From IMG/VR virus record IMGVR_UViG_3300011888_000020: 5,872 nucleotides of DNA; one strand, written 5' to 3'. Shown here in pieces: positions 1 through 5,872 of this stretch (its first letter is position 1; every line of letters begins with the position of its first letter). Made by a program: the position numbers and the translations under genes. A model generated the notes under the pieces. It searched no databases. It was not told the DNA's origin and saw only the letters and a list, made by a program, of their open reading frames with translations. The DNA is from a virus (lineage: Duplodnaviria > Heunggongvirae > Uroviricota > Caudoviricetes).

Positions 1-3
1 CCC

Positions 4-57
4 TTACTTGTTCAGGTTGTATTGTTCTTTCTTTGTAATTTGTTGATTTTCTTGCAT
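4..57 (-). other. Short ttcA-like 5' coding fragment at the prophage left junction (17 codons, MQENQQITKKEQYNLNK, then TAA at 4-6)
   Basis: Minus-strand ATG at 57-55 translates to MQENQQITKKEQYNLNK, which I recognise as the N-terminus of E. coli TtcA, the gene Rac is known to integrate into. The frame hits TAA at 6-4 instead of continuing. Too short and too close to the window edge to call a gene. Confidence 0.3.
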
Positions 58-108
58 TATTTCAGTTCTCTGGTACTAAATGGGGCAAATTGGGGGCAAA
101 CTTTGCAA

Positions 109-1344
109 CTACGATAACCGCGCATTCAACATGGCTATCTGTTCGTCGTTCATGTCATCAATCCACATACCGTAAATTTCATACACCATCTGCGCAGTTT
201 CATGCCCCATTTGGCTGGCTATAAATGCCGGGTTCGCTCCTGCCGTCAACAGCCAGCAGGCAAAAGTATGCCGCGTATGGTACGGATTACGGCGGCGAAT
301 ACCAGCACGTTTTACTGCTGCATTCCACCTTGCCCCCAAACTGCTTACCGAGTAATAAGGTTTTTGTTTTCCGTTACACACCCTGGGCATGAAAACAAAA
401 TGCAGTTTTTGCTTTTCGGTTCTGCCGTACTCCCGATGATAAAAGGTGATTTCGCTTTTGCGATGATGCCCGGTCAGTTTGTATTGCTCCTTCAGTGCTT
501 CAAGAGCAGGCTGCAGTAGTGTTACTGTTCGGATCCCGGCATTTGTTTTTGGGGGACCGAACATATCAAGTATCGTCAGGTTTCTTCTGACATTCACTAT
601 TCCCTTTTCGAGATCCACATCCTCCCACGCCAGAGCTGCCAGTTCCCCGTGACGAAGTCCTGAGTAAACGGCAAATTTCCACAAGTTCTGGCTCTGTCCT
701 TTTTCACTTTCCATTAATGCATTGAATTCTGTTTTAGATAACGGATCAGGCTTTATTCTGTTTCGCTGTAATTTTTTTACTCCTTCAAATGGTTTGGTTG
801 ATATAAATCCCGACTGATACGCAAAACGCAACAGCGAACAGAGCAGGGCGATATAGTTATCAACTGTGCGCACGGTTCTTCCTTTTTTGTTGGATCTTGG
901 ATTATCCAGGTAAAGCGTTTCTCCATGCAGCAGTTCATTCCGGTAGTTTAAGATATCGCTATAACGAATATGTGATATCGGGGTACTTTCACAAATTATT
1001 ATTCTGAGTGTTTTTAATTGTGATTTCGTTTTCTTCATTGTGTTTGTTGTTAACTCTGTCTCTTTAATTTTTGTCCAGATATCACAAAGCTCTCCGAACG
1101 TTTTTATGACTCTCGTTGTCACCATTTTTGCCCCAGTGCTGGACTGGGGAAAACGTCTTAAATACTCAAATTCACCGGAGTTTATTTCATGAACTATCAG
1201 CGATCTTAAATTTCCGGCCTTTTTAATATTACTGTTTGTAATCTCCCAGCCTTTTAATGTTTCCCGACATCGTTTTCCTCGAAACATGAACCAGATGCGA
1301 ATGTATCTACCTCTAATCTCGACACCTGTTGGTAATTTAGACAT
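109..1344 (-). CDS. intR: Phage tyrosine integrase (Rac prophage IntR), 411 aa
   Basis: ATG at 1344-1342 to TAG at 111-109. Translation carries tyrosine-recombinase hallmarks: GLRHGEL (box I Arg), HTRHTFA (H-x-x-R) and C-terminal GHETAQMVYEIYGMW with the catalytic Tyr. The start lies 1 nt after the ydaQ stop, a classic xis-int arrangement. The protein matches my memory of K-12 IntR. Confidence 0.93.
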   Translation of the reverse strand: MSKLPTGVEIRGRYIRIWFMFRGKRCRETLKGWEITNSNIKKAGNLRSLIVHEINSGEFEYLRRFPQSSTGAKMVTTRVIKTFGELCDIWTKIKETELTTNTMKKTKSQLKTLRIIICESTPISHIRYSDILNYRNELLHGETLYLDNPRSNKKGRTVRTVDNYIALLCSLLRFAYQSGFISTKPFEGVKKLQRNRIKPDPLSKTEFNALMESEKGQSQNLWKFAVYSGLRHGELAALAWEDVDLEKGIVNVRRNLTILDMFGPPKTNAGIRTVTLLQPALEALKEQYKLTGHHRKSEITFYHREYGRTEKQKLHFVFMPRVCNGKQKPYYSVSSLGARWNAAVKRAGIRRRNPYHTRHTFACWLLTAGANPAFIASQMGHETAQMVYEIYGMWIDDMNDEQIAMLNARLS

Positions 1345-1345
1345 A

Positions 1346-1561
1346 TCATGAGTCTTTGATAAACTGATTTATCTTTGGATAGTTGTACCAGATAATCCCT
1401 CGTTTGCTGTCTGGCTTACCTAAAGGAGATACTCGTTTGAAGTGGAAGCCCTCCACCCAACAGTTCTGGCGGTATGCTTCAATTTGTCTGGCCCCCAGAC
1501 CAGTGCGAAGCATCAGGCCGTATTCAACCATCCACTCTTCATTAAAGATTACTTGTGCCAT
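1346..1561 (-). CDS. ydaQ: Small excisionase-like protein (YdaQ/XisR), 71 aa
   Basis: ATG at 1561-1559 is preceded by GAGGTGA. The track's longer ORF begins at a TTG at 1585 with no Shine-Dalgarno. The stop TGA at 1348-1346 is 1 nt from the int[19 protein letters not shown]... matches my memory of Rac YdaQ. Confidence 0.82.
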
Positions 1562-1639
1562 CGCATCACCTCTGGCAGGCGCCAATGTTAGACTGAAATT
1601 GACGCCCGATGTTGATTATTAATAATCAGCTATGAAGTT

Positions 1640-1849
1640 TTAATTTGAATACAATGCAATTCTCGAGGACTGAAGTTTCTCGCAATTAAAATTTATCAGT
1701 TTTACTTTCTGCTCTCTGGAAACGCCTGCTTCTTTTTTACCTGAGAGCATTTTTTCGCATTCTGATTTCGTTAGTTTAGATTTTGAATATCTTGTCCAGT
1801 TAGTAGAAGTGCCACCTTCCTTTTCAATAGTGGCGGTAATTTTATACAT
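1640..1849 (-). CDS. ydaC: Rac prophage small protein YdaC, function unknown, 69 aa
   Basis: ATG at 1849-1847 is preceded by a strong GGAGG (minus strand, rc of 1851-1860) with a 5-nt spacer. The track's 93-aa version starts at ATG 1921 with no Shine-Dalgarno and overlaps ralR. MYKITATIEKEGG... matches my memory of YdaC. Confidence 0.78.
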   Translation of the reverse strand: MYKITATIEKEGGTSTNWTRYSKSKLTKSECEKMLSGKKEAGVSREQKVKLINFNCEKLQSSRIALYSN

Positions 1850-2036
1850 GAACACCTCCATTATTATTTCCAGTGGTTCGTTTATTCCATCTTTCGAGTG
1901 CTTCTTTTTCACTTCCACCATAACCGGTTCGGGATTCGCATCCGTTACACTTCGCTCGGTAATATCCTGAAATGGCTTTCACCGTTACTGATGGACAACC
2001 ACAAAATGGACATGGTTTAACATTGTCATATCTCAT
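1842..2036 (-). CDS. ralR: RalR / Lar-family restriction alleviation protein, 64 aa, four-Cys zinc-ribbon-like motif
   Basis: ATG at 2036-2034; an in-frame ATG 12 nt upstream (2048-2046) is an alternative start. The protein MRYDNVKPCPFCGC...KCNGC has CxxC...CxxC. Its 3' end overlaps the ydaC start by 8 nt. Matches my memory of K-12 RalR. Confidence 0.85.
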   Translation of the reverse strand: MRYDNVKPCPFCGCPSVTVKAISGYYRAKCNGCESRTGYGGSEKEALERWNKRTTGNNNGGVHV

Positions 2037-2063
2037 AATTTTTCTCATAAAAAATATTTCAAG

Positions 2064-2086
2064 TTGGCGGTGCATTACACCGCCAG
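2064..2086. promoter_or_regulatory. Intergenic stem-loop between recT stop and ralR start (GGCGGTG / CACCGCC, 5-nt loop)
   Basis: A perfect 7-bp GC-rich inverted repeat at 2066-2072 / 2078-2084, extendable by one T-A pair and a wobble pair. On the minus-strand transcript it is followed after about 10 nt by a U-run (AACUUGAAAUAUUUUUU) just before the ralR ATG. Confidence 0.4.
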
Positions 2087-2092
2087 GCTGAA

Positions 2093-2902
2093 TTATTCCT
2101 CTGAATTATCGATTACACTGTATTCCCCGGTTAATACAGAGGAATCTGCAGGATCGATTGTCAGTGGTTCCTTTTCATCCATTGATACTGCACGCTGGAT
2201 CTCAATTGATACGGGCAGATATTTGAACAGGCGACGAATAGCCGTTTTCTTTGCCATTTCTTCCCAGTGAGTTACCCACGGCCCGTTATTACCAGCTTTA
2301 CTCAGGCTGCGCACCAGCTCAATCTGTTTGCGCGTCATAACTTCAAACTGAGTACCTCCGTCTTTCAGTCTTGCGACAGCATAGACGTGGGTAACCGGGG
2401 CATCTTCGTTTTCTCCCGGGCGGTGTATTAACTTTTCATCAAGGCCAAATTCGAAGCTAAACTCGTCACCTTCACGGACAACACGGGCTGACAGGCTGGC
2501 GATTTGACCAGAACGGCGAGCCAGATCAATCATGCCGCGATAGCCAATGATTAGCTGAACGTTCTTTTTACCGCTCTTTTCGTTTTTATTACCAAAAGGC
2601 AGTAAATATGCATGACCGAGGGCGCTACCTGGCTCAAGTCCGAGCTGTGAACACTGTACGATCGCACTGACAAAACTCATAGTGTCACAGTTTCCTAACG
2701 CCGGAACTTTACGAATTTCTGTGGTGGCGATACGGATCATACGTTCAGCCGTCATATGGCGTGGAAGAGCTGCTGCCAGTTGCTCTTTCATTGATGGCTG
2801 GTTAATAAAACTAATCACGTCGCTATTTTTAACTGCTGCTGGTGCACGGTTTCCCTGAGTTTTTTGCAGATCGGCTTTTGCGATTGGTGGTTGCTTAGTC
2901 AT
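2093..2902 (-). CDS. recT: RecT single-strand annealing protein (RecT/Red-beta family), 269 aa
   Basis: ATG at 2902-2900 is preceded by AAGGA with an 8-nt spacer. The track's 288-aa ORF starts at a CTG at 2959. The stop is TAA at 2095-2093. [24 protein letters not shown]... matches my memory of K-12 RecT. The recE stop overlaps recT codons 2-3. Confidence 0.95.
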
Positions 2903-5445
2903 TTGCATATTCCTTAGCCCAGCGGGGCAGTGATAATGTCTTAATAGCTGGCCATTCATCGGTATTCAGGCAGTCAGACAGGGTTCGCAGATTGCGGTGA
3001 TATTCCTGTTGACCTGCCAGTTTTGCTTCTTCGCCCATCATGAAAATTTCAACCGGATAACGTCCGCATTCAATAGTTGTGCTGGCAACCAGAAAAACGA
3101 AAGTTGGCTGCACTCCAAACTGTGCTTCATAACCGTCACTGTAGAATGCATCCTGAACGTGATAGCGGTAGTCGTAATAAGCGGTTTNNNNNNNNNNACG
3201 GCCATGATCCAGTGAAATTCAGGGATAATTTTGTCCGGACGGCACCGACACAAAATTCCTGTTTCAGGATCTTCCCAGTAAATTGATGATTCAGCGTGTC
3301 CGGCGCTTTCAACAAGCCATTGCCCCAGCGGCAAAGCCATAACGCTTTGATACATGAGTTCAATTTTCCGGCCTTCTTCCGCAGTGATAACCGTTTTTCC
3401 TGTGCTTGCGCATTCCATCAGAAACGCTTTCTCTTCTTCTTTTCCGGCGTTTGTACGGCGGTTAAATTCAGGTGCTACGATAAAGCGGTTACTGAATTCT
3501 TCCTGTTCAAGTACCCGGCAGTGGAAAGCAGTTCCTAAATCGAGCGTTTTTGTCTTTGTGGTGTCCACGGGGGCATTTTTACGCCACAAATATAGTGCCG
3601 GAGTATCAGCAATGTCATCGAGCTGAGACTTACTGATACCGGGACCCGCGTGGTAATTCTCATTCGAAATTCCGTAATAAATACCTGGCTCTATGTCTTC
3701 TACGATTACGGGATCTGCGACTTCGCCAGTTTCATCACTGCAATCGCGATGCGGATCGCTGCCAGCATTCTCATTGTGCGGATGTTCAGCGCCTTCCATT
3801 TCCTCCGGATCATTTTCCTTAGCTTCAACCTGACTCTCTTCATCACCGCACCACAGTCAGGGCAGTTATCCCCGCCAGTCTGGCCGCAGGCATTGCAGGC
3901 TATTTCCGGTTCCTGTTGCACTACTGGCTCAGGTTGATTCATATCCGGGCTGGTTTTTTCCGTTTCTGGCTGGTTCTGGTACACACAATCGCGAGTCTGG
4001 ATCCCCTTTACCCATTTCGGATCGTTCGGGTCGCTAATTCCGTCAACAAATTCACCACGTGATGCAGCAAGCAATTTATCGGCATCGACAGGATTTTTTG
4101 ATGGAATGTTTTTCCGGGCTTCATGGAGTTCTGCCCGCAGTTCCTGATATTTCGCATCAACAGAATTTACCTGTGACTGAGCATCCAGCGGCTGCGTGTC
4201 CTGATGATGTTCAGTTGCGTCCTGTTCCATTGTTTCAGCCTCTCCCTGTTCAACTGCCGTTGTTCCAGATGGTTGCGGTTTTTCTTCATCATCCTGTTTT
4301 CCTTCTTCTGTTACTCGCTGCGGCATCGGGGCAGAGGAGCGACCGCAGGCAATATCCACGATTTCCGGATCAGGGTTGGCATGATCGGTTTCAGTCAGTA
4401 CTTTGTTCAGATATTCAGTGACGTGCGCGGGGATGACCTCGATCCCAATTGGTGCTTCTTTTACGGACGCAACCACGATGGCGCGGGAATAATCCAGCCC
4501 GCCAGGCATGGTGATGAATTTGTCGCGGAAAACAGAAAAGGGCGGTTTATTTTCAGCGATAATTTCCTCAATGCGTTTAGCGTGTGCCGGATGAAGGTTA
4601 TAGATGTCCAGATCCATTGAACGGGCCAGTACGCCAGTGGCTACGTCGCGCGCCAGTGACGTCAGATCGTGTACGAAACCTTCGCCGCGATCGGTGAGGC
4701 TTCCGCCGCCAGCATTAGCACCGGAAGCCGTGCGAGTGATGTGTGAAACACGATTACCCTTCATCCACTCTTTTGTCAGCAGTCCTCGATCGGTGTAGTC
4801 AGCGTTCAGGTATGCTTCGAAAAAAGCAGTTATCAGTCCCAGGTTTGAATTACCAGGATTAGGGAAAACTTTGTCAGTGTCACGAACCAGTTTGTGGAGT
4901 TCGCGAATTTCCAGCGGGTCGAGCAGGCTGGTTTTGTGGGAAACAGCCAGGGCAGTAACAGCCGGTAGTTCTTCAGCCCGAGCAATGTGTAATGCCTGGA
5001 GTCCGTCGCGTGAAACGTGCGTTACCGGTTTTTCGCTGCCGTGTTGAGCAAGCCAACGAATGGGCAGTTCCTGGCCAGAAATTGGGAGTAGCATATTCTC
5101 CTCAATCTCAGTCATGTCTTCGCCGTTGACGTTGGTATTGCCTTGATAGTGAGCGTTGTCTGGTGCTGCTCCCGGTTTTAGTTCCCATGTCATGGAGTCT
5201 TTGCTGAGTTGATAGCGTTCACTCCAGGTAAAATCGATCTCACCTTCAGCGGGCAGGTCATTAACGACAGGAAAATTCGTGGCAACAGCTTTAAAATAGC
5301 TGCTCAGTTTTTTACCTGACTTAACGATCAGGTAGTCCAGAGTGGCACAGGTCGATTCAAAATCGTTGCTTGCCCACAGGACGACGTCAGGTTCACCGGA
5401 TGATTTTTTCGCTTTCCGTAACAGGAAGAGTGGTTTTGTGCTCAT
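2895..5445 (-). pseudogene. recE: recE (exonuclease VIII), disrupted in this sequence by a frameshift after codon 535 and an N-run in the nuclease domain
   Basis: Three minus-strand ORFs in three different frames each match contiguous parts of RecE: 5445-3706 (residues 1-535 plus a 44-aa out-of-frame tail), 3799-3198 (MEGAEHP...[14 protein letters not shown]) and 3187-2895 ([29 protein letters not shown]...KEYAND). The start ATG at 5445-5443 has GAGG upstream. The stop TAA at 2897-2895 overlaps the recT start. Confidence 0.88.
3188..3197. other. Run of 10 N (assembly gap or masked bases) inside the recE nuclease domain
   Basis: Directly visible in the sequence. It sits between the third base of the Val codon at 3199-3197 and the first base of the Lys codon at 3188-3186. 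The recE frame differs on the two sides, so the N count does not equal the true length. Confidence 0.95.
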
Positions 5446-5516
5446 TGTTTTTTAACCTCAACTCAGATTAAAATTCGTTTTGTTCAGTGAATGATCTTGC
5501 CGGATACACACTGTTC

Positions 5517-5541
5517 ATAGCCTGCGTCATACGCAGGCTAT
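5517..5541. terminator. Perfect 11-bp stem / 3-nt loop hairpin directly downstream of the racC stop and upstream of recE
   Basis: ATAGCCTGCGT-cat-ACGCAGGCTAT pairs perfectly (5517-5527 with 5531-5541). On the plus strand it is followed by TTCTTTC (intrinsic-terminator-like). On the minus strand it is preceded by an A-rich run and not followed by a U-tract. Confidence 0.45.
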
Positions 5542-5546
5542 TTCTT

Positions 5547-5822
5547 TCAGATTTCACCTTTTAATTTCATTGCAATTAGAGTTGCCAGAAATTCGGCTTT
5601 TTTTTCTGTGGGCAGATTCTTTCCGATATGCACCAGGCACATTTTTTTGACACCTTCATCAAGTGTTTTTACGTTGCCTGATGGACCATCGATATCAACC
5701 ACAGTGAATGGGGTTTCTTTATTTTCTGTTTTAATTACGTAGCCAATGCGCTTTCCTTCCAGATTCACCTCGTGAACAATGTCATCGGTAGTTACAACAG
5801 TGGCTTCATAATTGGTAATCAT
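5547..5822 (-). CDS. racC: Rac prophage protein RacC, function unknown, 91 aa
   Basis: ATG at 5822-5820 is preceded by AAGGAG with a 6-nt spacer; the stop is TGA at 5549-5547. MITNYEATVVTTDDIVHEV... matches my memory of RacC. The start overlaps the upstream ORF's stop as ATGA. Confidence 0.85.
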   Translation of the reverse strand: MITNYEATVVTTDDIVHEVNLEGKRIGYVIKTENKETPFTVVDIDGPSGNVKTLDEGVKKMCLVHIGKNLPTEKKAEFLATLIAMKLKGEI

Positions 5823-5872
5823 GTTTTCTCCTTTATTAAGGTTGAGGGAATACCTGCCATTTTCTGCATAAA
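5819..5872 (-). CDS. 3' end of an upstream ORF running off the right edge (probably the Rac ydaE-equivalent, by position)
   Basis: An open minus-strand frame from the window edge ends ...FMQKMAGIPSTLIKEKT with TGA at 5821-5819, overlapping the racC ATG. Only 17 codons are visible. The ydaE assignment is by synteny only. Confidence 0.4.
   Translation of the reverse strand, partial: FMQKMAGIPSTLIKEKT

Follow-up and report, generated by a model that had tools for sequence, protein, structure and literature searches.

A frameshifting 31-bp loss in recE at the left end of a Rac prophage: a commonplace lesion of a dead gene or, possibly, an error of the draft assembly

The recE gene in the window, that is, the whole 5,872-nt stretch of DNA analysed here, cannot be read through as one protein, and the question raised by this locus is whether the bases were lost in the source DNA or in the making of the sequence. 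A sequence-only reading had named a pseudogenising deletion and an assembly error as the two explanations. Comparison with complete genomes and searches of large collections indicate that this was the right pair of options; the two remain close, an even chance being given to the deletion and somewhat less than that to the error.

The locus and its place in Rac

The window is the intR-to-racC end (left end) of the Rac prophage of E. coli. It is 99.9% identical to strain EC93, and about ten further closest complete genomes are likewise 99.9% identical. All genes lie on the minus strand, and the order racC-recE-recT-ralR-rcbA-xisR-intR is the same in the annotated Rac prophages of EC93 and H1 (DNA identity to EC93 99.7-100%). 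Genes were assigned from the list of open reading frames (ORFs) together with the annotation of near-identical complete genomes, and those that matter for the argument are:

109-1344, minus strand: intR (ORF list and annotated relatives)
2093-2902, minus strand: recT, intact (annotation of EC93 and H1, mapped via the 100% identical block)
ATG at 5445 down to about 2895, minus strand: recE (ORF list and annotated relatives)
5547-5822, minus strand: racC (ORF list and annotated relatives)

Thus, recE lies between racC and recT, and recE and recT overlap by 8 nt, the recT start codon preceding the end of recE, as annotated in EC93 and H1. In EC93, recE is a single 2,601-nt ORF of 866 codons (WP_021565075.1); the window holds no uninterrupted ORF of about 866 codons, the frame being shifted after codon 535.

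Two further observations concern the locus as a whole. The RalA antitoxin sRNA, which is expected for Rac, is present in full length (Rfam RF02694, 224 bits) at 1665-1843 on the plus strand, opposite the ralR toxin gene. At the other side of the window, beyond intR, positions 1-7 (GTAAGGG, minus strand) depart from the ttcA flank of EC93, so the prophage flank of the source strain differs from that of EC93. A 60-mer that includes these positions occurs exactly in other E. coli, for example, APEC O1, which argues that this end is natural; in APEC O1 and other strains, the matching flank consists of an integrase remnant followed by the omptin gene region.

The 31-bp deletion and its occurrence elsewhere

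The frame had been said to be lost after codon 535 (3843-3841) and to run through 44 out-of-frame codons to a stop at 3706, and both statements are borne out by the ORF list and the translation. The minus-strand ORF at 3706-5445 encodes 579 amino acids, namely, 535 RecE residues and a 44-residue shifted tail. Codon 535 is an ATG, and beyond the junction authentic RecE resumes in another frame, so that recE is composed in the window of the following parts:

3841-5445, minus strand: codons 1-535, the authentic N-terminal region, equal to residues 1-535 of EC93 RecE except for N249S
3841-3844, minus strand: the deletion junction, with one GATG retained from two flanking copies (alignment with intact recE)
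3706-3840, minus strand: 44 out-of-frame codons (KRVRLKLRK...KSQIP), then the stop codon at 3708-3706 (ORF list and translation)
3198-3841, minus strand: codons 546-759 and two bases of codon 760 in the other frame, comprising the start of the nuclease domain and Asp748 (translation; 99.8% identical to EC93)
2895-3187, minus strand: codons 771-866 and the stop codon, identical to EC93 (100% over 3,180 nt)

The loss had been estimated at about 31 bp and proved to be exactly that. A pairwise DNA alignment with the intact recE of strain H1 contains a single gap of exactly 31 nt and otherwise no difference over 300 nt, and the best 30 hits of a 401-nt query each cover 432 nt, in two pieces. Since these are direct comparisons with intact genes, chance is not at issue for the gap. 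The missing segment is GGCGACGCAACATACCAGGAAACATTCGATG or, in the other register, GATGGGCGACGCAACATACCAGGAAACATTC; in the intact 866-codon gene it encodes G536-D545 plus one base, and these residues are the very GDATYQETFD that the sequence-only reading had named for K-12 RecE at this point. The junction reads GTGATG/AAGAGA where intact recE has GATGGGCGACGC, and the junction string GTGCGGTGATGAAGAGAGTCAGG stands against the intact string GTGCGGTGATGGGCGACGCAAC.

A direct repeat of 4 nt (GATG) borders the missing 31 bp, and one copy is left at 3844-3841. Microhomology of at least 4 nt accompanies only 0.5% of the 1,940 distinct 31-bp deletions that are possible in recE, which argues that the event was guided by homology and that its end points are not random. 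The lesion thus has what would be expected of a pseudogene made by slippage: a length that is not divisible by 3 (31 bp), a premature stop (after 44 shifted codons), and a short direct repeat at both ends with one copy retained (GATG...GATG). A hairpin that would promote slippage was considered as well and rejected; a 7-bp inverted repeat (CCTGACT/AGTCAGG) brackets the site, and the fold is no better than that of shuffled sequence (z = -1.1).

It is on these grounds that the loss of 31 bp from recE in the source DNA, through a slip between the GATG copies, is the reading that we prefer, with a probability that we place at one half. An ordinary Rac recE would have lost the segment between two GATG copies 31 nt apart, the likely routes being replication slippage or microhomology-mediated joining. 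The clean flanks of the gap and its exact size speak for such an event, and the repeat at the junction is a slippage signature. Moreover, a repeat of only 4 nt does not allow a de Bruijn or overlap assembler to create such a junction, so that it was most likely present in the sequenced molecules. The interior of the block is otherwise clean, and the ORF stays open for 535 codons.

Other carriers of the junction were sought in several collections. A 48-nt query across the junction, designed so that intact genes cannot seed a match, found none among the complete E. coli genomes (0 of 5,426) and none in the plasmid and phage collections, and exact scans for the 39-nt junction string found none in the GTDB representatives, IMG/VR and the JGI metagenomes. 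The intact string, used as a positive control, matched four GTDB genome contigs, and none of the recE copies there carries an indel when compared with EC93 (three copies are complete, and the fourth is truncated by the locus end). An exact look-up of the 579-aa product found no record of it. When the junction peptide was searched against proteins, none was found to have the GAVM/KRVRLK junction; the hits were short E. coli and Shigella ORFs in which the switch from the RecE frame into this alternative frame takes place elsewhere, at four points. In the literature, nothing specific on described natural recE pseudogenes was found.

To judge from these records, frameshifted recE-like genes are common in public genomes, but the allele of the window is private. 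The first point, decay of recE with frame switches at four other points, favours a real deletion. The second weighs against it: a junction that was found nowhere else, with a product that is not on record, leaves the deletion without independent confirmation, and its uniqueness among all collections searched counts in favour of an artefact.

Marks of a draft sequence and a repeated module

The sequence-only reading had not included three findings that all bear on the question of an artefact: an N gap with an adjoining Asp759 change, the one-sided distribution of private differences, and a repeat module shared with paralogs. The differences from EC93 within recE, apart from the 31-bp deletion, are:

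3188-3197: run of 10 N replacing 29 bp of the reference, GAAAACTACGGCGGATATTCAACGATTCA (comparison with EC93)
3201, minus strand: private GAC to GCC change, catalytic Asp759 to Ala, 3 nt from the N run (comparison with EC93 and translation)
4700, minus strand: private A-to-G change, Asn249 to Ser (comparison with EC93)

The gene as written is therefore broken twice, by the 31-bp deletion and by the N gap. The 29 replaced bases begin with the third base of codon 760, end with the first base of codon 770 and span the PD-(D/E)XK motif with catalytic Lys761; the run of 10 N resembles a scaffold gap whose length was set wrongly. The change of Asp759 adjoins the gap by 3 nt and hence may be an error. 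For a 60-mer that carries it, there is no full-length exact match among the matches listed; 1,731 of the 1,732 matching genomes fall into the 95-99% identity band, and the genomes among the matches listed agree at 98.3%. It looks like an error at a contig end rather than a real active-site mutation, and it should not be accepted at face value. The N249S change, in this background, occurs in 0 of 5,426 complete genomes, the best genome still having one mismatch; a 1,975-nt stretch of the surrounding block is one base off the best genome.

A cluster of further differences lies at the end of the window upstream of racC (5826-5866), where five private differences are found in the last 47 nt. They comprise CC to C, AAA to AAAA, AAAAA to AAAA and two substitutions, so that three are changes in homopolymer length; one of the five shortens the spacer between the GGAG and the ATG of racC. 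Only the A5-to-A4 change was found elsewhere, in one genome (strain E89), and no exact match to the stretch was found. The cluster is probably low-quality contig-end sequence.

All private differences lie in 3198-5872, and there is none in the 3,180 nt of window 1-3187 that were aligned without difference to EC93. This confinement to one block, with the other half 100% identical to EC93, shows that the source is of draft quality. A mis-sized N gap, an adjoining mismatch and the cluster of errors upstream of racC, each of them private, occur together, a pattern typical of a draft scaffold that joins two contigs whose ends are prone to error.

These marks count against a real deletion, and they support the other explanation, namely, that the 31-bp loss is a sequencing, library or assembly artefact and that recE of the strain is intact, which we regard as a serious possibility with a probability under one half. 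It might have arisen by a wrong contig join or gap closure inside a short repeat shared with paralogs, from a single chimeric read, or from a deleted clone at low coverage. The two losses in recE are, in addition, of similar, roughly k-mer size (31 nt and 29 nt) and only 645 nt apart. However, no assembler step could be reconstructed that gives the exact break points: graph assemblers need a shared (k-1)-mer, and the break points share only 4 nt instead of at least k-1 bases. Common scaffolders either insert Ns or require longer overlaps, and a Velvet-style join writes at least 10 Ns. The bookkeeping of a de Bruijn assembler, in which k or k-1 bases are lost at a Velvet-style join, was tried as an account of the two losses and stays speculative; the N gap fits it loosely, and the clean 31-bp deletion with its break points does not. 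The microhomology, for its part, is equally consistent with genuine slippage.

A module of about 300 nt in recE (window positions of about 3700-4000), which contains a Cys4 motif and an acidic linker, has 82-86% DNA identity to exonuclease genes of other lambdoid prophages, and this part of recE is for that reason present in several copies in most E. coli genomes.

In E. coli, the sequence surrounding the deletion is multi-copy and occurs at 6,809 places in 4,083 genomes, with as many as 7 in one genome. In over 2,600 complete genomes, the weaker module match (80-90% identity) is the only one, and the Rac-carrying records among the matches listed mostly have at least two places. In three sampled paralogs, the longest exact identities to Rac recE are 46, 45 and 34 nt, each of which contains the whole of the deleted segment. 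A test of whether the deletion falls within identity shared with paralogs was written down before it was run: only 2 of 921 possible microhomology deletions (5-100 nt) in recE fall inside the exact-identity island, so that such a position is unlikely by chance. The 31-bp deletion is thus a lesion in repeated sequence, and the coincidence lends mild to moderate support, though no proof, to a repeat-related artefact, at the expense of a real deletion. Nevertheless, the region of the N gap, examined in the same way, is essentially single-copy (1,732 records, 1,820 places), so that repeats do not explain both lesions. The idea that the private SNPs are bases copied from paralogs, by chimeric assembly or gene conversion, was rejected and does not aid the artefact either, as these bases are absent from the six diverged alleles checked.

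Consequences for RecE and comparison with known systems

The N-terminal domain of RecE is retained in the window, where PF06630 (Exonuc_VIII) is matched over its full profile at residues 2-178 (E = 3e-98). The nuclease domain is incomplete: PF12684 (PD-(D/E)XK) is interrupted by the N run, and the window ORF matches only positions 1-119 of the 233 of the profile, against 1-222 for EC93 RecE. The numbering of Asp748, Asp759 and Lys761 in an 866-aa protein, on which the earlier count of missing codons had relied, was confirmed in EC93 RecE, where all three stand at the published positions of this reference protein. In the window, Asp748 is present, a GCC codon (Ala) stands in place of Asp759, and the Ns cover Lys761. 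No Pfam match was found for the 44-residue shifted tail.

The nuclease domain comprises residues 564-866 (PMC11611040), and the claim that the lesion splits the N-terminal region from it therefore stands. The break at codons 535/546 comes shortly after a conserved CxxC-x7-CxxC motif and, counted from the resumed codon 546, precedes the domain by 18 codons. For the N-terminal two-thirds of RecE no function is known, and in genetic terms the nuclease domain is enough by itself (PMC11611040), which counts in favour of a real deletion. Linear-linear recombination is improved by full-length RecE, according to Fu et al. 2012 as cited in PMC11611040.

The CxxC-x7-CxxC motif is located at recE codons of about 517-531 (window 3850-3897, minus strand) and closely precedes the deletion. 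All diverged recE-like fragments retrieved have the four cysteines at unchanged spacing, whereas the residues next to them vary; the motif is possibly a zinc-binding knuckle within the N-terminal region of RecE.

If the deletion is real, one may ask whether the split could be functional, such that a 535-aa N-terminal region and a nuclease domain are made as two proteins in a counterpart of the RecE truncation used in recombineering. The start of the second protein would be:

3797-3799, minus strand: ATG of Met560; the nuclease domain has no other in-frame start codon ahead of it (from the sequence; the ORF at 3038-3799 begins here)

This in-frame ATG is preceded by a GGAGG and lies 4 codons upstream of the domain boundary at 564, and the nuclease domain alone can replace full-length RecE genetically (PMC11611040). 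However, the GGAGG is only 2 nt upstream of the ATG, which is poor spacing for translation initiation, and no internal promoter-like site was found upstream of Met560 in 3500-4100. The ATG also sits 93 nt inside the shifted ORF, so that terminating ribosomes cannot restart there. In addition, the arrangement is not conserved as a split gene or programmed frameshift would be (0 of 5,426 genomes, and no protein with the junction), and the downstream domain as written is disrupted by D759A and the N gap. A functional split of this kind is thus very improbable. The same low probability applies to a strain that makes the N-terminal region (535 aa with the 44-aa tail) without the nuclease, and perhaps the nuclease separately from Met560; if true, such a strain would amount to a natural experiment on the role of the N-terminal two-thirds of RecE by itself.

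In the gene as written, the frame shifts after codon 535 and stops 44 codons on, and the only possible product is the 579-aa protein without the PD-(D/E)XK nuclease domain. Under the preferred reading, a slip between the GATG copies in the source DNA, the nuclease domain would probably not be made at all, because a restart at Met560 would depend on a badly spaced ribosome-binding site within a shifted frame that is still translated, with no promoter-like site before it. Expression of recT would presumably be reduced as well, since its start overlaps the end of recE and recE stops early. In wild-type Rac, recET is silent unless activated by sbcA-type mutations, and hence no phenotype would be expected; recE is a dispensable, normally silent gene in a defective prophage. 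The deletion would then be a case of neutral decay, confined to one strain, in a gene of a cryptic prophage.

It should be noted that the biological weight of the lesion is very small under either of the two main explanations, as it affects a dispensable cryptic-prophage gene of which frameshifted copies are common. It represents no new biological feature, being a lesion of the kind usual in dead genes or possibly an error of the draft assembly. Its value lies in annotation: recE in IMGVR_UViG_3300011888_000020 should be labelled as a pseudogene or carry a low-quality flag.

The closest known system is RecE of Rac itself (exodeoxyribonuclease VIII, K-12 b1350 and orthologues such as that of EC93), with which the window shares the locus, the gene order, the Exonuc_VIII domain and the start of the PDDEXK domain. 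It differs by the lack of 31 bp, the N run over Lys761, D759A and N249S, and by having no single 866-codon ORF. The truncated RecE forms used in genetics and recombineering separate the same two parts, and the break at 535/546 in the window falls into the linker before the nuclease domain. However, these forms are in-frame and have a proper start codon, whereas the nuclease part in the window is out of frame and has no credible start, and for this reason loss of the nuclease would be expected rather than a working truncated enzyme. Chu, Templin and Clark are said to have described in 1989 that sbcA-type racC-recE gene fusions suppress a recE frameshift.

The paralogous genes of about 820 aa that are annotated as 'exonuclease' or '3'-5' exonuclease' (WP_000102132.1, WP_074522321.1) and lie between dicB and xis-int share the module with the 34-46-nt exact island at the deletion. 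Their remainder was not alignable with recE at the DNA level in the search, and they are part of other prophages located elsewhere (next to potC or ompW).

The frameshifted recE-like ORFs of E. coli and Shigella (P0001, P0002, P0003, P0007 and P0023) resemble the window allele. They are RecE-like through the region of CxxC...CxxC-GAVM and then enter the same alternative frame. The switch occurs after GAVM (in a different event, with the ten codons kept in shifted form), EEYQV, DDPE or EHPH, and these ORFs represent diverged alleles, none of which has the GAVM/KRVRLK junction of the window. The allele is new, being absent from every collection searched, but of a routine type, either a loss-of-function deletion that is private or an error of draft assembly.
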